Assembly: GCA_964468965.1 (NCBI GenBank)
Contig: CAYXXA010000005.1
Coordinates: 1 to 39,785 of the forward strand
Direction of reading: 5' to 3'
Length of the DNA stretch: 39,785 bases
DNA from: an uncultured Candidatus Peribacteria bacterium
GTDB lineage: Bacteria > Patescibacteriota > Gracilibacteria > UBA4473
Within the stretch, counting starts at the first letter, position 1. The number at the start of each line of letters is the position of its first letter. A program made the position numbers and the translations under genes. Of the stretch, positions 5,783-20,832 are shown piece by piece. The notes under the pieces were generated by a model, which was not told the origin of the DNA, searched no databases, and saw nothing but the letters and a program-made list of their open reading frames with translations.

Positions 5783-8332
5783 ATGTCCCAACCTTTTGTA
5801 AATCTTCATACACATTCTTTTTACTCTATCCTCCAGAGCATGATGTCTCCACAGGATATTTTGGAAAAAGCAAAAACATTACAGTGTCCCGCCGTAGCAC
5901 TTACCGACAACGGTGTTGGATACGGACTGATTGACTTTTATAAAAAAGCCGAAAAGGTAGGTAACATAAAACCTATCCTTGGTGTAGAGCTCGCTATCGC
6001 TAAAGATTCTCGATTTGAGAAACGAACAGGAATTGATGGAAACGAGGGATATTTAGTTTTGATAGCACAAAACTTTAAAGGTTATGAAAATCTACTAAAA
6101 CTTATTTCCATTGCCCAGCTTGAAGGCCTTTTTCAGCAACCAAGAATTGATTGGGAATGCCTATCACAAAATCAGGAAGGGCTTATCGCTCTTAGTGGTG
6201 GAACAAACGGACTCTTAGGAAAAGAACTTCAAAATAATAACCCAGATCGAGCTGAAACTTATCTAAAAAAGTGTATTGAAATCTTTGGCCAGAAAAACTT
6301 TTATCTTGAATGTGTTGCTAAGCCTGGAGAATCACAAAAAAATCTAAATCTATGGAATCTAATACAGGCTCAAAAAAATAATTTAGAAATTGTCGTCAGT
6401 TCTGATGCTCGATTTGCCGATACAGATGATGAAGAAGCCGCTGACACCCTCTACTGTATTGGAAAAAACTATACCTTATCTGATCCCCATCGTGAAAAAA
6501 TAATGCATCAAGGACATTTCAAATCATGGCAAGAAATATCCCAAGAACTTGATTATATAGAAGCCGATATTTTAGAAAAAGCCCGTCAGAATTCTCTTGA
6601 TATTGCCAAAGACATTGATCTGAAATTGGAATTTAACCAATCCCTCCTCCCTCATTTTGAAGTGGAAAAAGGTGAAACTGAAGCTTCACAGCTAGAAAAA
6701 AATTGCCAGGCTGGATTTATAAAACGAGGATTTAATAAAATCCTTTCCGCCAAACAACAACAAACCTATCAAGACCGACTTAAATACGAACTTCAAATTA
6801 TCGGAAGAATGGGATTTGATGCTTATTTTTTGATCGTTGAGGACTTTATGAAATTTGCGAAGGAAAGCGGTATTGCGGTTGGACCAGGCCGTGGATCTGC
6901 TGCAGGTTCACTGGTTTCTTATCTTTTGGAAATTACTAATATTGATCCTATTGAATACGATCTACTCTTCGAACGATTTTTAAATCCAGAACGAATCTCA
7001 ATGCCTGATATCGATATTGATTTTTCTGATGAAAGACGAGATGAGGTTATGAATTACGTTATTGAAAAATACGGTATCGAAAAAGTTTCTAAAGTCTGTA
7101 CCTTTGGAACACTAGCCGCGAAAGCCGCTCTCAAGGATGTTGGTCGGGCTCAAGGTGTAGATTTTAGCGAAATGAATGCCATGACCAAAGTCATGCCCAA
7201 TACACCTGGATTTAAACTAAAAGACGCTGAAGAACTTTCTGAATTTAAAGATTTATTAAAAAAGAAACCACATCTTAACAAAGTCCTAGCCATTGCCAAA
7301 AAATTAGAAGGCTGTGTTCGACATGTTTCCGTTCACGCCTGTGCGGTAATTATTGGCGCTGATGATCTGAGTAAGTTTTGCCCGATCCAGTGGGCACCTG
7401 GGGCTGAAGAATTAAAAATAACACAATACCCTTATGAACAATTAGAGTCTATCGGCCTTCTAAAAATGGATTTTCTTGGACTTCGAAACCTTTCTATTAT
7501 CGAAAAGACCGTTAATAATATTCGTCATAGTACTGGCCAAGATATTGACCTCAATACGATTCCCATTAATGACAAAAAAACATTCGAAACGACCTTTGCC
7601 GCGGGCGAAACAACAGGTGTTTTTCAGTTTGAATCAGCTGGAATGCGACGATATCTTAAAGAACTTAAACCAACAGAATTTGAGGATTTAGTCGCTATGA
7701 ATGCCCTCTATCGTCCCGGTCCGATGGAGTACATTCCGCAATACATTGAAGGAAAACATGACCCCAAAAAGGTAAAATACATGCATCCTGCACTTGAGCC
7801 TATTCTGAATAAAACCTATGGGATTGCGGTTTATCAAGAACAAGTTCTCCGAATTGCACGAGATTTTGCTGGTTTTTCCCTTGGCGAGGCCGATATCCTT
7901 CGAAAAGCAATTGGAAAAAAAATTGCGTCAATTCTGAACGAACAACGACAAAAAATAATCGATGGAGCGTTTAATAAGGGGTTTGATAAAAAAACCGCGG
8001 CTAAAATATTTGATGAAATCATCGTTCCCTTTTCTGGATATGGTTTCAACCGAAGCCACGCTGTTTGCTATGCTCGAATTGCCTATGAAACCGCTTACCT
8101 TCGTGCCAATTATCCCGTGGAATTCATGGCCGCCATGATGACCACCGACCGAAATAATACCGATCGAATTGTTCTTGAAATGAATGAATGCCAGGCGATG
8201 GGAATTGATGTTTTACCACCTAGTATCAACGAATCGGGAAGCTACTTTACCGTCATTTGTGATAATCATGACCAGTTAACAATTTCCTCCGAAAAACCTG
8301 ATTTGGAAGCCGTAAAAGGTTCAGGAAAATAA
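5783..8332 (+). CDS. dnaE: DNA polymerase III alpha subunit, C-terminally truncated or split (PHP + catalytic core)
   Basis: GPGRGSAAGSLV, FERFLNPER.SMPDIDIDF, KMDFLGL, GVFQFES, ALYRPGP, YGFNRSHA. Stops at aa 849, shortly after LPPSINES..FTV. Confidence 0.93.
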   Translation: MSQPFVNLHTHSFYSILQSMMSPQDILEKAKTLQCPAVALTDNGVGYGLIDFYKKAEKVGNIKPILGVELAIAKDSRFEKRTGIDGNEGYLVLIAQNFKGYENLLKLISIAQLEGLFQQPRIDWECLSQNQEGLIALSGGTNGLLGKELQNNNPDRAETYLKKCIEIFGQKNFYLECVAKPGESQKNLNLWNLIQAQKNNLEIVVSSDARFADTDDEEAADTLYCIGKNYTLSDPHREKIMHQGHFKSWQEISQELDYIEADILEKARQNSLDIAKDIDLKLEFNQSLLPHFEVEKGETEASQLEKNCQAGFIKRGFNKILSAKQQQTYQDRLKYELQIIGRMGFDAYFLIVEDFMKFAKESGIAVGPGRGSAAGSLVSYLLEITNIDPIEYDLLFERFLNPERISMPDIDIDFSDERRDEVMNYVIEKYGIEKVSKVCTFGTLAAKAALKDVGRAQGVDFSEMNAMTKVMPNTPGFKLKDAEELSEFKDLLKKKPHLNKVLAIAKKLEGCVRHVSVHACAVIIGADDLSKFCPIQWAPGAEELKITQYPYEQLESIGLLKMDFLGLRNLSIIEKTVNNIRHSTGQDIDLNTIPINDKKTFETTFAAGETTGVFQFESAGMRRYLKELKPTEFEDLVAMNALYRPGPMEYIPQYIEGKHDPKKVKYMHPALEPILNKTYGIAVYQEQVLRIARDFAGFSLGEADILRKAIGKKIASILNEQRQKIIDGAFNKGFDKKTAAKIFDEIIVPFSGYGFNRSHAVCYARIAYETAYLRANYPVEFMAAMMTTDRNNTDRIVLEMNECQAMGIDVLPPSINESGSYFTVICDNHDQLTISSEKPDLEAVKGSGK

Positions 8333-8408: not shown

Positions 8409-9491
8409 ATGAAAAAATACAGTATTCTACTCCTTATTATCATTGGTTTGACCTTTACCGCACAAGCACGTGAAGCTTTACGTGCTGATGATGTCATCAA
8501 GGTTCGAGATGGTAAAGTCGTGGACACAGGAATCTTGAGTGACGAAAAAGGAACCATCTTCCTCGAGTTTATTAAAGGTGATTTTGTAAACTATGCGAAA
8601 GATAAACAACCCTTTACAGGAGAAATTCTTCCCCCTGCCATTATTGATAAACCCTTAAAACTACCACGATACCGAATGCGTGAAATCCTAAGTTTTGAAC
8701 TCTTAACCGATAACGTTGAAACCGTTACGTTTGTTGATCGGTATTCCCTTATGCACCCAAAAGAATATCTTCGAACAACGTTGGCTAACCCAGATGGACT
8801 AATCCATGGAAGCGGTATAAAATTTCTCACACGAATCTACGATGAAGACAAGTTTGGACTTCCTACACTTTGGGTACTAGAAACCGAAAAAGAAAGCGTT
8901 CTAAAAACAGAACGAAAAAAGTATTGGAAAAAAATTGGAGGAAAGCTTGTTGAAACCGAAGAGAGTGGCGTAAAAGTTTTCTCGGCTGTACTAAATCGAA
9001 CAGGTGTTTATGGTTTATTTGATGAAGATCCAACCCCCTACTATAGTCCAAACACACCTCTAGAAACGGTTCAAAAAGTAGAAGCCTCACCTTATCCTAG
9101 TGTTGTGCCTCAAGCTCCAGCACTACCTATTACTCCACCACAAACCAATACGTCTCAAGCCACTGACGAAGATTTCTACTTTGACGAAAATGACAACCTT
9201 CAACTCGTTCCCGCTGTCAACGAACGTAAAAATAATGTACCAGTTATCGATAACCGAATCATTCCGGCTATTCAAACCCCTATTGAAGTAGTCCCCGCGG
9301 TCGATACGCCGAAAGTCCCACCCGTAAGTGAGTTTCAAAATTTACAATCTAATAATCCTAATATCAAAACTCTTCCAGTTACAGGAGCTAGTTTAACACA
9401 AACACCATCTTCTCATTTTCCTTTTGTTCTACTGCTTGCTTTTGGACTACTTGGCGGAAGTTTTTATTTGGCCTTTAAAAAACAATATTAG
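8409..9491 (+). CDS. Secreted surface protein with LPxTG-type sorting signal
   Basis: Signal peptide (MKKYSILL...AQA), Pro/Thr/Val-rich linker, LPVTG (9372-9386), hydrophobic helix, KKQY tail. Confidence 0.8.
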   Translation: MKKYSILLLIIIGLTFTAQAREALRADDVIKVRDGKVVDTGILSDEKGTIFLEFIKGDFVNYAKDKQPFTGEILPPAIIDKPLKLPRYRMREILSFELLTDNVETVTFVDRYSLMHPKEYLRTTLANPDGLIHGSGIKFLTRIYDEDKFGLPTLWVLETEKESVLKTERKKYWKKIGGKLVETEESGVKVFSAVLNRTGVYGLFDEDPTPYYSPNTPLETVQKVEASPYPSVVPQAPALPITPPQTNTSQATDEDFYFDENDNLQLVPAVNERKNNVPVIDNRIIPAIQTPIEVVPAVDTPKVPPVSEFQNLQSNNPNIKTLPVTGASLTQTPSSHFPFVLLLAFGLLGGSFYLAFKKQY

Positions 9492-9535: not shown

Positions 9536-10501
9536 ATGAATAATAAACGAGACTTTAAAACTTTTATAAATCACTGTCTTCATAAGCCAGAAACAAGAGT
9601 CGCTAAATTTGTAAATGGATCGCTGGTATTTCTTATTATTTTTTCTATCGCGGTTATTCCACTTCACTTCCTACCAGAAATGTCATGGGCTAAATCTTAT
9701 CTTATAACCTTTGATAAAATTACCATCACGGTTTTTACGATTGAATACTTCTTGCGAATTTGGGCAGCCGACCGAAAAGCAGCCTATGTATTTTCCTGGT
9801 GGGGTCTTATTGATCTTCTTGCTATACTTCCTTTCTATCTAGCAAAAATAGGACTTATTAGTCGTCCAGAAATCTTTATGGCGCTTCGAATACTTCGAAT
9901 ACTCAAGCTTGGGAAAATTTATGAAATCGAACGAAATGCTATTTCTGAGTGTGCGACTAATGAACATGGCGAATTTCGTGTACTTGACGATGAGAATATT
10001 GAACGCGTTGTCCAAAAGCACCCATTAGTTTTCATGGCAAAACTCATTATGCCACTTGTCATGACCACTGTTGGGTTAACGATCATTGTTTTTTTTCAGG
10101 GTATGTTTATCGCTACAATCATTGCTATCTTTTTCTTTATTTTTGCCGCCATCTTTTTCTTTAAAGCCTGGTTAGATTTTAATTATGATGTTATTTATAT
10201 CACTAATAGACGGGTCATTCTCCAAAACAGAGAGCTTTTTGGAGCTATTACCAATGACATTACCTATGAATCCATAACCAATGTCAAACCAAGTAATATT
10301 GGTATTTGGCATTTTCTTTTTGGATTTGGAAGTGTTTGTATTGAAACCGCCTCAGTAGATGGGGCACTCCATTTTCATGAGGCCCCAAATCCTCATGAAA
10401 TTGTCCGACATATTACGAAAAACAGACAACTGGTTCTTGAAAGACGTAAAGTTGATAACATTCAATTTCCATCAACTAAAAACGATAAAAAAACTAGCTA
10501 A
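9536..10501 (+). CDS. Voltage-sensor (S1-S4) domain fused to 2-TM + bacterial PH domain; no pore
   Basis: S2 VFTIEYFLRIW, S3 IDLLAILPFY, S4 LRILRILKLGK; then DDENIERVVQKHP, two TMs, YITNRRVI...ITYESITNV...FGFGSVCIETAS (bPH_2-like). Confidence 0.8.
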   Translation: MNNKRDFKTFINHCLHKPETRVAKFVNGSLVFLIIFSIAVIPLHFLPEMSWAKSYLITFDKITITVFTIEYFLRIWAADRKAAYVFSWWGLIDLLAILPFYLAKIGLISRPEIFMALRILRILKLGKIYEIERNAISECATNEHGEFRVLDDENIERVVQKHPLVFMAKLIMPLVMTTVGLTIIVFFQGMFIATIIAIFFFIFAAIFFFKAWLDFNYDVIYITNRRVILQNRELFGAITNDITYESITNVKPSNIGIWHFLFGFGSVCIETASVDGALHFHEAPNPHEIVRHITKNRQLVLERRKVDNIQFPSTKNDKKTS

Positions 10502-12023
10502 TATTTCTTCGTACAAAATTCATTAACTTTATTTGTTCTGGTGACATTTTTTCCATGACAGACTGTTTTGCATAAGATTTCAAAAGCGGATTATATTTTT
10601 CCCAGAACATAGACGCTGCATTATCACCAAGTAAAAACAATGCCAAAAAGATACTCTCCTTTCCGAGAAGGTATTTTCTCGCTGATGCTGGCATTTTTTT
10701 AACATAGTTTTTGAAGCTCATCCTCGGAATTGTTTTCAGTGTTTTCTTCATGACACCAGACCCTATCATTTTCTTAGCACCACCTTTTATGGCTGCCTTA
10801 GCCGTAACTCGTGCTGCCGCTAATGGTGCCGCTGCCGATCCAGCGGAAAAGAAAGTTCCGGCAGCCCAAATCACATCCATTACCACACTCGTTCCCGCAA
10901 ATAAAGCTCTTGTTCCAAATGAGTATTCTGATTCATCATTGAAAAGTTCCTTTATATCACGGTAGGAGCCCGTTATAGGGGCAACATCCAATGCAATATT
11001 ACCAGCGGTTTCTATAAAACTTTCCTGTTGTTTTTCAGGATGAAATATCCAATCAAAAATTCGAGCAAACGCCTCTGTTTTACGAGCCTTACTTGCCAGT
11101 CCTTTGAGTGGCATTCCTAAATCTTTAAAAATTTTTTGCCCATCTTTTGGGTATTTTGTCACAAAATTCACAATCGCAGACCTGTTTTTTTTAGTCGGTA
11201 GCGTAATAAACTTTTTAATAAATTCTAAACCAATTAGATACAATCCAGCCGTATGAATTTTCGCCTCTTTTTTGGCATTAAGTCCCAATTTGACCTTATC
11301 GGTAGTCGTTTCAACTTTTTCAATCACATTCTTTATTTCATCTTCATATTTATTTTTAAGTTCGATTCCAGCATTATAAGATTCAATTCCTCGTTTAACC
11401 GCTTTATACGCAAAGAAGTCCTTAAAAGATCTTCCAATAAAACTAAAAAAGCCTTCACGATTATTCCAGTTTTCTTTTATAACTTCACTAAAAGTTTTTA
11501 TTTTTCGACGTCCAGAATTAGAATTTTCGGCTTCTACTTTTGTATAATGTTCAATAAAATTTTTAAACTTTTTCTTCCGCTCCTCTAATGTTAAATATTC
11601 AATATCATGATTACCATCAAAATATCTCTCTAACGCTTCCGCCTCTTTATTGAGATTCTTTAACTTTTCATCATCCTCTAAAACAGCCGTTACATTTTCA
11701 ATTTCATTTGAAACAACTAAAATAGGACGGTTTGTTCCGTTCTTCTTGGCAATTTCCATCGCCAGTTTTTCTTTTTCCGTATCCACACGAAAGTGTTCCG
11801 CCGTTTGATCTTCTAATTCATTCAGTGGAACCACATTATTCGCATATTTTTTACGTTCAATTTTAGAATGATGTTTCAGTATCCCTTTCTCCAAACGCTC
11901 TTCTACGCTATCATCACTTTCTACTTCTTTTCCATAATTCAAACCCCATTCCAATCCTCTTTTCAAAAAATCTGGCACAACCGTCACTTCTTCTTTCTCC
12001 ACTTTCTGTTTTACAACCGCCAT
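10494..12023 (-). CDS. Hypothetical coiled-coil protein with pre-toxin-TG-like segment
   Basis: Charged helical N-terminal half; ALDVAPITGSYRDIKELF...SFGTR motif and Ala/Gly-rich hydrophobic hairpin near the C-terminus. Confidence 0.6.
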   Translation of the reverse strand: MAVVKQKVEKEEVTVVPDFLKRGLEWGLNYGKEVESDDSVEERLEKGILKHHSKIERKKYANNVVPLNELEDQTAEHFRVDTEKEKLAMEIAKKNGTNRPILVVSNEIENVTAVLEDDEKLKNLNKEAEALERYFDGNHDIEYLTLEERKKKFKNFIEHYTKVEAENSNSGRRKIKTFSEVIKENWNNREGFFSFIGRSFKDFFAYKAVKRGIESYNAGIELKNKYEDEIKNVIEKVETTTDKVKLGLNAKKEAKIHTAGLYLIGLEFIKKFITLPTKKNRSAIVNFVTKYPKDGQKIFKDLGMPLKGLASKARKTEAFARIFDWIFHPEKQQESFIETAGNIALDVAPITGSYRDIKELFNDESEYSFGTRALFAGTSVVMDVIWAAGTFFSAGSAAAPLAAARVTAKAAIKGGAKKMIGSGVMKKTLKTIPRMSFKNYVKKMPASARKYLLGKESIFLALFLLGDNAASMFWEKYNPLLKSYAKQSVMEKMSPEQIKLMNFVRRNIS

Positions 12024-12128: not shown

Positions 12129-12998
12129 TTATTTCCCCACCCACGATGTTTTCCATTTCGCCCACCATTTCATTTTTGGAAAAAAGATCCCTAAAACGGA
12201 AGCTATAAAAATTAGGACCTTTAACACTATTCGTTTCCCTCCTCGTGGTAAAATTTTAATTTCAGGATGAAGTTGTTCAAAAACTAGTGCATTTTTTCGA
12301 GCTGAAAGGGTTTTTAGTAGCACAGAATCAAGATCAGGTACATCCAGTCGGTAAATAATAGAACGTTCGTTATAGGATAATTTAAAACCTTTTTGTGCCA
12401 ATCGATACCCAAATTCAGCATCTTCAAATCCCCAACCTTTGAAATTATTATCAAATTTTAACATAAGTTCTTCGCTCCCCTTCTTCCCTTTCCCTATTTT
12501 TAGAAATGATTTCTTCAGACTGATATTACTCGTATAAAAATGTCGCCAATCCGCTCCATTTTTTTTAATTTTTGAGTAGTCAAACTGTGGTCCATTTTCT
12601 AGAAATTGAGTAAAATCAGTTTGACACTTCCAGATTACTTTTCCTAGTAATCCCCTGTTGGGTGACTTATTTTTCTCATGAAATTCAACAATTTGTTTCA
12701 GCCAATCCTTATCTGGAATGCCATTATCTCCTATAAAAATAAGAATGTTGCCTATTGATTTTTCAATACCAACGTTTCTTGCTCCTCCCGCATAAACCTG
12801 ATGATCTGTTGCGTACAAACGCAACCCTTTAATATACTTTGAAAGTTTCGTATCAACTGGTCTTCCGTCAAAAATTACCAGTATTTCTGGCTTTATATTC
12901 TTAAATCCCTCACACTCGGAAATTCCTTTCAAAACCGTTTTCAGGCTCTCCCTTCCAAGCGTAGGAATGATGATTGAATACTTCATTTTCTTATTCAC
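12129..12998 (-). CDS. Glycosyltransferase family 2
   Basis: YSIIIPT.GR, ARNVG, FIGDN, TSNISLKK, GWGFEDAEFGYRL. Start may be ATG 12986. Confidence 0.9.
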   Translation of the reverse strand: MNKKMKYSIIIPTLGRESLKTVLKGISECEGFKNIKPEILVIFDGRPVDTKLSKYIKGLRLYATDHQVYAGGARNVGIEKSIGNILIFIGDNGIPDKDWLKQIVEFHEKNKSPNRGLLGKVIWKCQTDFTQFLENGPQFDYSKIKKNGADWRHFYTSNISLKKSFLKIGKGKKGSEELMLKFDNNFKGWGFEDAEFGYRLAQKGFKLSYNERSIIYRLDVPDLDSVLLKTLSARKNALVFEQLHPEIKILPRGGKRIVLKVLIFIASVLGIFFPKMKWWAKWKTSWVGK

Positions 12999-17633: not shown

Positions 17634-17812
17634 GTATAAATGGAGATTTATAAGTTTTAATACCCAAATAATAATTTAGATTATTTTTTTGTCAAAAGGC
17701 AATCTAAAGAAAATTATTTTCTCACTTTAGTAATAGGGCAAAAATTGATGAATTCACTTTATTTTTTCACCATTGTATGATACAATTCTTAGATTTTTTG
17801 GACACCAACATT

Positions 17813-19930
17813 ATGAAAAAATACCTCAAGAGCTTCAAAAAAATAGGTCAATTGTGTTCAAGTGATATCAAACCGATACTATTTTTACTAATTGCCATTG
17901 TGGGAATTGGGCTACTTGATCCAACCACAGTTACCTTTGCAAGCGCTTCTGGAAACATTGGCGGTGGGTATAGCCAGCAAACACAAGATACACTTAAGAG
18001 CCTTGGTGAACTACTTAGCCTTATCATTAAGATGTTCACGTTCCTCGCAATGTTCATCATCTCTGTTGGAGGTGAGCTATTGGGAACTGACATCCTTCTC
18101 AATGATTCCGCACAAGAAGGGATTAAATTTCTCTGGCAGTATATGCGAAATATTACAAATATAGGATTTGTACTTATTCTCCTTTACCTTGCCTTTGCCA
18201 ACTTATTTTCATTTGGCGATAGTGGTGGTGGCTGGACAATTAAAGAAAAATTACCAAAAGTCATCATCGCGATTATAGCAGTAAATTTCTCACTATTGGC
18301 ATTTAAAGTAGTAATTCAAGCCGTTGAGGTTGGGACAGTCGCGATTCTTTCTATTGCGGATACCGCTTTGGAGGAAAAACAAGCTGGATCACTTGTTGAC
18401 CTTTTAAACACAAAGGTTCCCAATGGCGAGGGAAAAGATGAAGCCTTTTACAAGGTTTTTAATAAGACAATGAACTGTGCAGACGGAGGGAAGTCTATTA
18501 CCGCCACAAAGGATAATCCAAAACCAAGTTGTATGTTTTACATTGATATTAGTAAAGCCAAAGACAATGCTACTAAAAATATCATGGTGGCCTTTGCTGT
18601 CCACTTCTTACACCTACAACAACTCCCAACACTAGCCGCTGGAACATCCAATCTGACACAAGTCATTGATAATGTCTTGTTTTCAACAATTCTTTCACTG
18701 GCATATATTGTCGCCTTGGTGGCAATGTTCATCGTCATGATCATTCGAGTCGCTGCACTATGGCTCTTTATGGCGGTTTCACCGATTCTAATGGCGGCTG
18801 GTATCTTAGGATTCGGTGGATCTGGAGGCGACATTGGTTCGAAAATAATCACCTATCTCATTGTACCACTTAAAATATCGGCTGTATTTGCTTTTACCTT
18901 CGTCATGATGACTGCTTTAGATAGCTACCAGAGTGTTTCATCTGGATGGCTAATTCCAGGTATAGCCCTCAATACAACCCTTTTCGAGATTCTCTGGAAA
19001 GTGATGATTGTTCTTATTTTCTGGCGAGGGGCCTTCTGGGCCCTCAATGGAACAGAAGCCGATGAAGTTGTTAACCATATAAAAAGTGGTGCCGAAAAAG
19101 TCGGTGGATTCGCCCTCCAGAGTGCTACCGTCGATCGTCCGATCTTCAAAATGGGAAGTATGAAACAAGGGGTTGGGCTTAGTACGATGGCCAGTATTCC
19201 AAATCTTCTTCAGAATCAACGAGCTAATACCCTGCAGAAACAAAGAACTGAGATGATGGGCTTACTCGGTGGAAATCAAGCTGCGATTGATGCCACTAAG
19301 GCACTTACGAAGGCGTTAAAAGATAAATCTGGACGAGCTCAAAGTCAGGAACTTGTCAATGATGTACTGTCTCAATTAACAGAATCTGATCTACAAAACT
19401 TGGGATCCGATGACCTTGCCAAACTAACACGTTATCTTGCTGAAAATCAAAGTAAAGAAGCCCCACTTCGAAAAGCTTTTGATGCTTATAAACACAGTCC
19501 AAATGAAGGAACACTGAGGAACTTAAAGAAAGCTATTGCGGATAGTAACAGCGCTGTAAAATCGTGGCAAGCGGTTAACATTGGAGGGAATGCTAAAGTC
19601 AAATCACCTACCGAGACCGAAGCACCTAAGGGTGCCAATATGGGAAGTGTTTCCATTACCAGTAATGGCAAGAACACCGTTATAAACTATAATATTGATG
19701 AACTTATGAACAACCCAACAGAACTAAGAGGTGCAGATGTGAATAAGCTAGCTAATATCATACAACAATCAATGGGACAGAATTTAACAGGTGTCGACGT
19801 AAACCACGCTAGCGAAATTGCTAAAGATATAACAGGTACACTACAACCTAAAGGCATTACAGATATCAATCAGACCACCCTCGAACAAGCTATAAAAAAA
19901 GTTATCCAAGCACAAAACACTCCATCGTAA
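17813..19930 (+). CDS. TrbL/VirB6-like polytopic membrane protein
   Basis: WQYMRNITNIGFVLILLYLAF...LPKVIIAIIAVNFSL, IIRVAALWLFMAVSPI; soluble C-terminal tail. ATG 17813 preferred over 17777, which overlaps a TG-TATGAT -10-like element. Confidence 0.65.
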   Translation: MKKYLKSFKKIGQLCSSDIKPILFLLIAIVGIGLLDPTTVTFASASGNIGGGYSQQTQDTLKSLGELLSLIIKMFTFLAMFIISVGGELLGTDILLNDSAQEGIKFLWQYMRNITNIGFVLILLYLAFANLFSFGDSGGGWTIKEKLPKVIIAIIAVNFSLLAFKVVIQAVEVGTVAILSIADTALEEKQAGSLVDLLNTKVPNGEGKDEAFYKVFNKTMNCADGGKSITATKDNPKPSCMFYIDISKAKDNATKNIMVAFAVHFLHLQQLPTLAAGTSNLTQVIDNVLFSTILSLAYIVALVAMFIVMIIRVAALWLFMAVSPILMAAGILGFGGSGGDIGSKIITYLIVPLKISAVFAFTFVMMTALDSYQSVSSGWLIPGIALNTTLFEILWKVMIVLIFWRGAFWALNGTEADEVVNHIKSGAEKVGGFALQSATVDRPIFKMGSMKQGVGLSTMASIPNLLQNQRANTLQKQRTEMMGLLGGNQAAIDATKALTKALKDKSGRAQSQELVNDVLSQLTESDLQNLGSDDLAKLTRYLAENQSKEAPLRKAFDAYKHSPNEGTLRNLKKAIADSNSAVKSWQAVNIGGNAKVKSPTETEAPKGANMGSVSITSNGKNTVINYNIDELMNNPTELRGADVNKLANIIQQSMGQNLTGVDVNHASEIAKDITGTLQPKGITDINQTTLEQAIKKVIQAQNTPS

Positions 19931-19995: not shown

Positions 19996-20832
19996 CTACC
20001 GATCCAAGTCGAGATCAAATCCACCCGTATCGTCCAGTTCTTTCTCCACCTCAATCTCTCGATATCGCTGTTCTTTTTTAACGATCTTTTTGGGAACTAA
20101 CTTTTCAAAGAAGGAAGCTTCCTTTTGCTTTCTGGCCTCCACGACTTCCTGTTCGGCTTCTTCTAAATGATAAAAATCCTTGGTCTTTAGTCGAAATCGT
20201 TCGGTCTCCCGAGTCGGTTGTCCATGTTCATCCACATGATGCTGAACCATCTGTGACAAGAGATTTTTCAAAGCCGATTCTTCCGTGAAATTTTTCGCGT
20301 CTAGGATCTTTTCTCGATATCGTTCAATCGTTCGAGATGTCCACATGGGTCGATTTATACGATGCACAAGCACCTTTGATCCACCATTTACTTTTTCAAA
20401 TCGCAAATCCCCATAGTTTAGCAGAAACGACCGAATCCCCCGTTTTTCTACCTCAATCTCGTCTAAATTATGAAAATCAATCCTCGAGAAATTTCGATGA
20501 AAAAACTTTTTCCAATCGACAAAAATAAGGCTTTCATTCGTCATAACAATTCCATTGTAGTACCAATACCCAAGTGCTCCCAGAACCTTATACAAAGTCA
20601 ACAAAGCAAAGAAACCCCAGACCATGGTCAAGTCATAAGAGTGAATCACTCCAGACGATGACTTAAAATCATACGTCGGATACAAGAAATAAAAAACATA
20701 GGTCAGTCCTCCCCATAATAAAACATGAATAAACATCCGAGGAAGGACAAAGATAAAAGGATGCCGAAAAACACGAAGCACTTTTTCATCCTCTTCTATA
20801 AAGTATCCGAAACCAAATTTGAGAAAAGTCAC
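19996..20832 (-). CDS. Membrane-anchored bacterial PH-domain protein (bPH_2-like)
   Basis: EEDEKVLRVFRHP, two TMs, VMTNESLIFVD...IDFHNLDEIEVEK.G...LLNYGDLRFE; GTG start. Confidence 0.75.
   Translation of the reverse strand: MTFLKFGFGYFIEEDEKVLRVFRHPFIFVLPRMFIHVLLWGGLTYVFYFLYPTYDFKSSSGVIHSYDLTMVWGFFALLTLYKVLGALGYWYYNGIVMTNESLIFVDWKKFFHRNFSRIDFHNLDEIEVEKRGIRSFLLNYGDLRFEKVNGGSKVLVHRINRPMWTSRTIERYREKILDAKNFTEESALKNLLSQMVQHHVDEHGQPTRETERFRLKTKDFYHLEEAEQEVVEARKQKEASFFEKLVPKKIVKKEQRYREIEVEKELDDTGGFDLDLDR

Follow-up and report, generated by a model that had tools for sequence, protein, structure and literature searches.

What does a voltage sensor do in a bacterium when no channel pore follows it? 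The question is raised by a gene of an uncultured Candidatus Peribacteria bacterium (GenBank assembly GCA_964468965.1, contig CAYXXA010000005.1), from which the stretch at positions 1 to 39,785, here called the window, was analysed. The open reading frame (ORF) at 9536..10501 on the forward strand starts with ATG, ends with TAA, has no in-frame TGA and specifies 321 residues. Sequence and model together predict that the gene encodes a six-transmembrane (TM) protein of the inner membrane, built of two complete modules. The first, at about residues 21-127, is a voltage-sensor domain (VSD) of the kind found in Shab- and Shal-like voltage-gated potassium (Kv) channels. The second, at about residues 150-308, is a YdbS-type unit, in which a strand bearing the E..HP motif is followed by a hairpin of two TM helices and by a cytoplasmic bacterial pleckstrin homology (PH) domain of the bPH_2 family, and it stands where a channel would have its S5-P-loop-S6 pore. 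We refer to the product as the VSD-bPH protein.

The two modules are apparent in profile searches, in the translation and in the predicted structure. Pfam Ion_trans matches residues 26-128 (E 4.5e-13; 49.4 bits, the cut-off being 25), and the match takes in profile positions 4-108 of 241, that is, S1-S4 only. The bPH_2 profile (PF03703) matches residues 221-293 with 24.5 bits against a gathering cut-off of 22, and the ORF scored 27 bits for bPH_2 in a scan of the genome. At E<=1 neither Ion_trans_2 or another pore family nor any phosphatase family of Pfam matched the 321-residue protein, and after S4 the Pfam scan found no phosphatase, coiled coil, exchanger or cyclic nucleotide-binding domain. 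In the translation, F67..E70...R74 lies in S2, D93 in S3 and R118..R121..K124..K127 in S4, and E153........H162-P163 precedes two hydrophobic helices. An earlier sequence-only reading of the window had proposed this arrangement, a Kv-like S1-S4 with S2 F..E...R, S3 D and S4 R..R..K..K followed by a '[DE]E.....[RK]HP + 2 TM + bPH' module, and both halves of the proposal are borne out.

The AlphaFold2 model, built from 58 homologues, has a predicted local distance difference test (pLDDT) score of 92.4 and a predicted template modelling (pTM) score of 0.86. A pre-S1 helix at 2-16 is followed by helices at 21-39/41-44, 50-77, 81-85/88-104 and 113-139 for S1 to S4, S4 being a single long helix. Beyond these come a strand at 155-160, helices 163-186 and 191-217 joined by a loop of four residues, a beta-sandwich (strands 219-284) and a helix at 286-308. 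When the model was searched with VIA-align against 48,161 PDB representatives, the top matches were Kv voltage sensors: Kv4.2 gave Z 14.0 and a root-mean-square deviation (rmsd) of 2.5 A over 124 residues (model residues 3-126), and the VSD superposed on that of Kv2.1 with Z 13.1 and rmsd 1.9 A over 115 residues. SpSLC9C1 matched with Z 10.5, and residues 140-300 superposed on PH-like folds, for example Lam6 (Z 11.9). A family profile run against PDB sequences matched Kv4.3 over query positions 5-129 (E 8.2e-20). Foldseek matched the bacterial PH structures 3dcx and 3hsa (TM-score 0.51-0.52 on the target, rmsd 2.6-2.9 A, 86 columns), and those of its alignments that extended through TM5-TM6 (about 250-276 columns) had rmsd values mostly of 12-21 A. 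For the membrane part of the C-terminal half, phmmer against PDB and VIA-align found no similar solved structure, and a phmmer search of PDB with residues 140-321 for a solved membrane bPH_2 structure returned nothing below E 0.4.

Are TM5 and TM6 then the remains of a channel pore? The window encodes a stand-alone protein, at 19996..20832, that the sequence-only reading had taken to be of the same type as the C-terminal half, and profile comparison agrees: hhalign aligned the VSD-bPH family with it over 160 columns at a probability of 94.7% (E 6e-8). Because this alignment spans the E..HP motif, both TM helices and the PH domain, TM5 and TM6 descend from the hairpin of the bPH family, not from S5-S6, and the C-terminal half is a whole YdbS-type unit rather than a degraded pore. 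The stand-alone paralogue itself matches Pfam bPH_3 only below threshold (17 bits, cut-off 23); it sits 10 kb from the VSD-bPH gene and is not syntenic with it. The sequence-only reading had suggested that the VSD-bPH protein might act through PH-mediated assembly, perhaps together with this paralogue, and might respond at host contact; none of these suggestions finds support in the analysis.

Is the voltage sensor one that could work? Conservation was assessed in 145 full-length members of 280-400 residues (P0001-P0119 and P0121-P0156, shorter and longer rows being dropped). In S2, position 60 is D or E in 142/145, F67 is kept in 143/145, E70 in 144/145 and R74 in 139/145; the S3 aspartate D93 is kept in 141/145. 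In S4, R118 is present in 140/145, R121 in 143/145 and K124 in 136/145 (with Arg in 7 more), and position 127 is basic in 80/145. F67, E70 and D93 occupy the same alignment columns as in Kv2.1 and Kv4.3, and by the Kv2.1 alignment R118, R121, K124 and K127 stand at positions R3, R4, K5 and R6. F67, E70, D93, R118, R121 and K124 are conserved across sequences down to about 33% identity, and the mean entropies of S3 and S4 are low, at 1.47 and 1.59 bits. The charge-transfer centre (F67, E70 and D93, with the outer acidic D60) is thus complete and under strong constraint. Residue conservation of this sort would be expected of an electrostatic sensor, not of a mere four-helix anchor. Most members have at least three in-register basic residues in S4, at positions R3-K5, the commonest charge patterns being '-o++++' (48 members), '-o+++o' (32) and 'oo++++' (24). 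Proton channels of the Hv1 type are marked by an S1 Asp selectivity residue and the S4 motif RxWRxxR. The sequence-only reading had found these hallmarks absent, correctly: in the query S4 has the sequence LRILRILK, with no Trp, and the conserved polar residues of S1 are N27 (127/145) and S37 (141/145), not Asp, so that the VSD-bPH protein differs from Hv1 in both helices.

The segments that follow S4 show a different conservation pattern. TM5 and TM6, very hydrophobic and rich in Phe, are among the least conserved of the ordered segments (mean entropy 2.16 and 2.30 bits), and none of their 43 columns is conserved at 90% or above, which argues against a selective pore. The best conserved stretch of the protein is the collar K210-AWLDxNYD-218 (mean entropy 0.95 bits, 4/9 columns >=90%), where W212 is kept in 142/145, D214 in 134/145 and D218 in 143/145, and just before the hairpin E153 is invariant (145/145) and H162 nearly so (143/145). 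The collar, E153 and H162 lie at the cytoplasmic face of the membrane, adjoining the end of S4. Such a pattern is easier to reconcile with signalling at the inner surface of the membrane than with a selective path for permeation, though a wide or non-P-loop conduit built from several copies of the 2TM-bPH unit may also be compatible with it.

No real pore domain is found, then: Ion_trans stops at 108 of 241 profile positions, there is no Ion_trans_2, and TM5-TM6 align to a YdbS-type hairpin, so that neither Pfam nor the alignment yields the S5-P-loop-S6 with TVGYG-type filter by which a Kv channel is recognized. The word 'pore-less', which the sequence-only reading had used, holds in that Pfam and hhalign find no canonical P-loop pore; it is too strong in that an oligomeric non-P-loop conduit is conceivable. 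A candidate membrane-potential sensor without a canonical pore is the description that stands, as far as sequence and model go. The same genome does encode an ordinary Kv channel on another contig (286 aa, TVGYG filter), in which Ion_trans covers 2-233 of 241 positions and Ion_trans_2 scores 56.6 bits. Because a Kv protein with its pore is retained there, the VSD-bPH fusion is not a decayed copy of the genome's sole channel. That channel gene (L002 1075..1935, minus strand, contig C15 of genome G000) ends in CxxC...CxxC resembling a zinc ribbon, and several prokaryotic Kv relatives carry a precomputed PF13248 (zf-ribbon_3) assignment.

How widespread is the fusion? A word-indexed protein search returned 1657 proteins at E<=0.001; among the 120 homologues listed, at least 95 cover 86% or more of the query, at 41-100% identity. 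An exhaustive search of 1.84 billion cluster representatives gave 41 clusters (50% identity) at E<=1e-30. Genomes were searched at E<=1e-20, a few of the matches being partial and at contig ends. In the window's family, with genomes of 0.7-2 Mb, 39 of 40 sampled genomes have a VSD-bPH match, almost always in a single copy; three other families of the class have it in 6/8, 6/12 and 7/40 genomes (19/60 together), and the other 200 sampled genomes of the class gave zero matches at this threshold. Among 401 genomes sampled across the phylum, full-length matches occurred only in the same class, and two matches outside it were to the bPH half only. A pattern scan of one genome per species over 185,579 species, using a family-specific pattern that could miss other fusions, found 62 loci, of which 58 are titled Gracilibacteria/Altimarinota, Peribacteria or Peregrinibacteria, one 'Patescibacteria group' and three unclassified bacterium. 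In the ESM Atlas only a cluster of its own kind was found (60 members, Ion_trans in 100% and bPH_2 in 12%, commonest taxon Peregrinibacteriota). Where public annotations of homologues are given, they read 'ion transporter', 'hypothetical protein' or 'membrane protein YdbS with pleckstrin-like domain'. The fusion reported by the sequence-only reading is therefore neither a singleton nor an assembly chimera, given the near-full-length homologues and the 39/40 genomes. These counts point to selection for the fusion, which is conserved in single copy in a clade of the Candidate Phyla Radiation (CPR). Our search of the literature, which did not extend to subscription journals and supplements, found no description of a VSD-bPH protein.

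Has the fusion arisen more than once? A rare second group, P0236, P0266 and P0267, shares this Pfam architecture, and its VSD is more like those of ordinary Kv channels. A rapidly built tree of VSDs (110 columns, 46 rows) places the three with ordinary Kv channels, with an approximate likelihood-ratio (SH-aLRT) support of 94. When four long or odd rows (KV_P0226, KV_ownGenome, FUS3_P0170 and FUS3_P0174) were left out, the approximately unbiased (AU) test gave p 0.306 for a tree that unites all 20 fusion VSDs in a single clade, which is thus not rejected. Because a single origin is left unrejected, convergent fusion is not claimed for these proteins, and we have dropped it. Three other candidates were set aside as well. 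A supposed family of stand-alone VSDs (P0182, P0187, P0203 and P0215) has Ion_trans only, but its ends suggest broken channels: P0182, P0187 and P0215 have low-quality tails like those of channels that are truncated or frameshifted, and P0203 stops partway through its channel match. Ten long matches that might have been longer fused forms (nine with two matching stretches, one with three) carry Ion_trans_2 pores, save one 264-residue protein with Ion_trans only. As to a mobile or viral origin, all 53 of 53 confirmed loci in IMG/VR match only residues 1-172, being VSDs of other proteins, and none has the full-length fusion.

What, then, might the protein do? We tentatively propose, giving the idea a little less than an even chance, that a working voltage sensor of low charge governs how the cytoplasmic bPH module folds into shape or assembles. 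A change in membrane potential would shift S4 by one or two charge steps, and the motion would be relayed through the cytoplasmic extension of S4, through direct contact with the collar KAWLDxNYD, or both. The relay would reach the E..HP strand, which is predicted to pair with the PH sheet, and at the inner face of the membrane the bPH module would change its conformation or its oligomeric assembly. In that case we would have a sensor of membrane potential (of energy or membrane integrity) driving a YdbS-like envelope module, and not a P-loop ion channel. We infer the movement of S4, the coupling route, the oligomerisation of the module and its output alike. A four-copy complex prediction of residues 140-312 (score 0.01, mark 0.42, run without controls) says nothing for or against assembly.

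Several observations weigh against this proposal. At the R1 position (112) Glu is found in 83/145 members, and at the R2 position (115) Leu is found in 81/145, Met in 19/145 and Arg in only 20/145, members of the Peribacteria branch being among those that keep R2; the query itself has E112 and M115. Only the inner half of the Shaker-type S4 charges is thus present. With the outer gating charges lacking in most members, one or two charges, and not more than about two, could cross, and the voltage dependence of the sensor would be shallow. The S4 sensor of the sequence-only reading is hence upheld in R118, R121 and K124, whose conservation throughout the family is not in doubt, and is weaker than that reading implied in lacking the R1 and R2 charges in most members. 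The S4 extension and linker (128-154) have mean entropies of 3.0 and 2.6 bits, with 1/27 columns at >=90%, and so differ from a dedicated coupling element. A distant branch known from metagenomes, P0170 and P0174, has the architecture even though its S2 Phe/Glu pair is degenerate and its S4 has lost most of the charges; the fold can therefore persist without them. In a comparison of 63 loci (62 related loci and the window) the neighbouring genes vary by branch and are of housekeeping or unassigned kinds; they suggest no pathway and support no output. The role of bPH_2 membrane proteins is poorly understood, and it is from the residues only that we infer voltage dependence. Separately, we note that the S4 of the P0170/P0174 branch reads like HLLHMLRILLLFELTR, and that the branch may serve as a natural 'sensor-dead' comparison set.

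Might the S1-S4 domain have no electrical duty at all? It could be a structural or lipid-facing anchor, as in the charge-poor S1-S4 of other channels, with the protein acting like any other of the YdbS type. The loss of R1 and R2, the poorly conserved linker and the P0170/P0174 branch all agree with such a voltage-insensitive scaffold. It is harder to reconcile with F67, E70, D93, R118, R121 and K124, each kept in 136-144 of the 145 members, or with S3 and S4 being among the best conserved segments, and charges buried in the membrane are costly unless used; we consider a scaffold of this kind improbable. Might the hairpins form a path of their own instead? One can imagine a voltage-gated, non-P-loop conduit, in which the bPH modules form a ring, the TM5-TM6 hairpins line a path for ions, small solutes or peptides, and peripheral VSDs do the gating. 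A VSD followed by a 2TM unit mirrors the layout of a 6TM channel subunit, and soluble PHb domains assemble into C5 and C12 rings around a central hole; Xu et al. proposed that the membrane PHb families face the cytoplasm and are pores or transporters (PMC2817789). The YdbS/YdbT-like pair DdE/DdF is needed for transport, as export, of the leaderless bacteriocin enterocin DD14 (PMC8657885). The segments that would have to line the path are, however, TM5 and TM6, whose hydrophobic, Phe-rich and unconserved sequences (0/43 columns at >=90%, 2.2-2.3 bits) and outer loop of just four residues are not what a selective permeation path would typically show. Pfam gives no match to Ion_trans_2 or to another channel family, and the membrane part resembles no solved structure. 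On this evidence we judge the conduit unlikely.

Two further alternatives concern conduction elsewhere. The VSD itself might conduct, either protons in the manner of Hv1 or an omega-type leak past the missing outer arginines, with the bPH module serving assembly or regulation. The replacement of R1 and R2 invites the thought, since replacement of S4 arginines can open gating-pore currents in channels and conduction through a VSD alone is known from Hv1, both according to a review (PMC13095418). R1 has been replaced by Glu and R2 by the bulky hydrophobic Leu or Met, none of them a small residue, and with LRILRILK lacking Trp and N27 and S37 in place of an S1 Asp, we regard conduction through the VSD as very unlikely. 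Finally, the protein could be an accessory subunit with no output of its own that modulates the canonical Kv channel of the genome or another membrane complex. The 286-residue channel with its TVGYG filter would be there to be modulated, but its gene is on a different contig and no Kv gene is found among the conserved neighbours, and of all the possibilities raised here this one strikes us as the most far-fetched.

How does the VSD-bPH protein, as a candidate sensor coupled to a bPH module, relate to known systems? It belongs both to the VSD superfamily and to the bPH_2 family, and by sequence it falls outside the Kv, VSP (voltage-sensing phosphatase) and Hv1 groups. With Kv2/Kv4 and prokaryotic 6TM Kv channels it shares a clearly homologous pre-S1 helix and S1-S4 (Z 13-14, rmsd 1.9-2.6 A), and with Kv2/Kv4 the S2 F..E...R, the S3 IDLLAILP(F/Y)Y and the inner S4 half R..R..K; unlike them it lacks S5-P-loop-S6 and the GYG filter, and most members lack the outer S4 charges R1 and R2. 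VSP, Hv1, TMEM266 and SLC9C1, all eukaryotic, likewise have a single VSD tied to a non-P-loop partner and a long S4 helix running into a cytoplasmic module, and in the available portion of the review the voltage sensors not coupled to pores are all eukaryotic and the bacterial examples all channels (PMC13095418). The VSD-bPH protein differs from the four in its bacterial host, in its partner, a 2TM unit with a bacterial PH module, and in having Kv channels as its best VSD matches; unlike VSP, it has no PTEN-like phosphatase after S4. On the side of the second module, B. subtilis YdbST and E. faecalis DdE/DdF have the same elements: the E..HP strand, the TM hairpin, and a PH domain in the cytoplasm that ends in a helix. 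These known YdbS/YdbT-type members have no voltage sensor, and their reported roles come from Firmicutes; ydbST belongs to the sigma-W envelope-stress regulon (PMC3498285). The PH fold is shared with the soluble PHb ring proteins (3dcx and 3hsa; PF08000), which, in contrast to the membrane-tethered PH domain here, are soluble pentameric rings (PMC2817789); assembly into rings by way of the PH edge strand is known only from such soluble proteins.

Table 1. Coordinates of the VSD-bPH gene, its parts and two related or adjoining genes in the window
Feature	Position	Strand	Basis
VSD plus YdbS-type 2TM-bPH module, whole gene	9536..10501	+	321 aa, ATG start, TAA stop
Pre-S1 amphipathic helix, aa 2-16	9539..9583	+	Model helix 2-16; aligned with Kv4/Kv2 pre-S1, profile alignment from query position 5
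Voltage-sensor domain S1-S4, aa 21-127	9596..9916	+	Pfam Ion_trans, Kv4.3 profile match, Kv4.2 superposition
S2 acidic/aromatic set: D60 (outer acidic), F67 (charge-transfer Phe), E70, R74	9713..9757	+	Conservation in 145 members
S3 Asp D93 in the IDLLAILPFY motif shared with Kv2/Kv4	9812..9814	+	D in 141/145; Kv2.1 and Kv4.3 alignment
S4, aa 113-127: R118 (R3), R121 (R4), K124 (K5), K127 (R6)	9872..9916	+	Register from Kv2.1 alignment
S4 cytoplasmic helical extension and linker, aa 128-154	9917..9997	+	Model S4 helix to residue 139; poorly conserved
Motif E153........H162-P163 and strand 155-160, marking the N-terminus of the YdbS-type unit	9992..10024	+	Conservation; same motif aligned in the paralogue
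TM5-TM6 hairpin, aa 163-209, 4-residue outer loop, no re-entrant P-loop	10022..10162	+	Model helices; aligns with paralogue hairpin
Juxtamembrane collar K210-A-W-L-D-F-N-Y-D218	10163..10189	+	Lowest entropy in the protein
Predicted cytoplasmic bacterial PH domain and C-terminal helix, aa 219-308	10190..10459	+	Pfam bPH_2 221-293, Foldseek 3dcx and 3hsa, PH-like folds Z up to 11.9
Stand-alone paralogue, 278 aa: E..HP motif, 2TM, bPH, long charged tail	19996..20832	-	hhalign probability 94.7%, E 6e-8
Convergent 509-aa protein, family unassigned, overlapping the VSD-bPH stop codon	10494..12023	-	Homologue kept in 23/63 loci; no Pfam or PADLOC match

The bPH-type proteins of this genome are several. 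Besides the stand-alone paralogue there are four further bPH_2 ORFs, and in all the 1.06-Mb genome holds no fewer than five more membrane ORFs of bPH type, located on contigs C22, C20 and C1 (loci L076-L078 and L080) and in the window. Among them are a 356-residue frame with two bPH_2 domains, open frames of 151 and 177 residues, and the 278-residue paralogue. The complement is large for so small a genome. Just upstream of the paralogue, and convergent with it, lies a gene at 17777..19930 (+) for a 717-residue multi-TM protein with no Pfam match.

As to the gene neighbours, DnaK is encoded divergently upstream in 24 of the 63 loci. A homologue (460-660 aa) of the 509-residue protein is encoded convergently downstream, overlapping the stop codon, in 23 of them, the window included; no other neighbour is widely conserved in this branch. 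The 509-residue protein at 10494..12023 (-) is largely helical and rich in charge, and toward its C-terminus it has hydrophobic segments of Gly/Ala-rich sequence; it has no Pfam or PADLOC match, and its leads in the ESM Atlas all score below 0.9. In the Peribacteria branch an HD/HD_assoc phosphohydrolase gene lies just upstream on the same strand (a cluster of 23 loci, 19 of them with a called target gene), and an M23 peptidase gene lies downstream. The gene immediately upstream in the window, at 8409..9491 (+), is 44 nt from the VSD-bPH gene, and the adjacency is kept in one locus of the same genus (L003) and, by clustering, in 10/63 loci. It encodes a 360-residue protein with an N-terminal hydrophobic signal-like segment and no Pfam match, ending in LPVTG, a hydrophobic stretch and KKQY, which we take to resemble the end of a sortase-anchored surface protein. 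A role in defence was considered and dropped: PADLOC has no match for the VSD-bPH gene, the paralogue or either neighbour. A scan for promoters and terminators gave nothing usable (8 promoter-like sites where 11.0 were expected).

Two other features of the window may be recorded. The ORF at 5783..8332 (+) encodes a DnaE-like DNA polymerase III alpha subunit of 849 residues, ending in TAA, in which the PHP, DNA_pol3_alpha and finger domains are found. DNA polymerase III alpha usually has a C-terminal helix-hairpin-helix (HhH) and an oligonucleotide/oligosaccharide-binding (OB) fold; here Pfam has no match after residue 732, and neither HhH nor OB fold was detected. The names of relatives had raised the matter of a genetic code in which TGA is Gly. 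Among window ORFs of at least 150 residues (n=32; GC 37.5%) the stop codons are TAA in 19, TAG in 11 and TGA in 2; if TGA is read as Gly, those two ORFs gain 2 and 27 codons, and the ORF at 12129..12998 gains 16 codons through an upstream start. Because the VSD-bPH gene has no TGA, the choice between codes 11 and 25 has no effect on the finding.

What would the finding mean? An ambitious view, which we think unlikely to prove right, is that the VSD-bPH protein is the first prokaryotic VSD coupled to a non-P-loop partner and, in the boldest form, a voltage-gated conduit of bPH ring and TM hairpins under Kv-type sensors, with which ultra-small CPR cells would couple membrane potential, and so their energy state, damage to the membrane or contact with a host, to transport or to remodelling of the envelope. 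More generally, a conserved bacterial union of a VSD with a PH membrane module would show that the modular reuse of VSDs extends to bacteria as well. A protein of 321 residues with a single VSD is small and probably tractable for studying how S4 motion is transferred to a partner that is not a channel, and it would give a first functional handle on the widespread and obscure YdbS/YdbT (bPH_2) membrane proteins. The finding bears, too, on how genome-reduced CPR bacteria, with genomes of about 1 Mb, may monitor their membrane potential.

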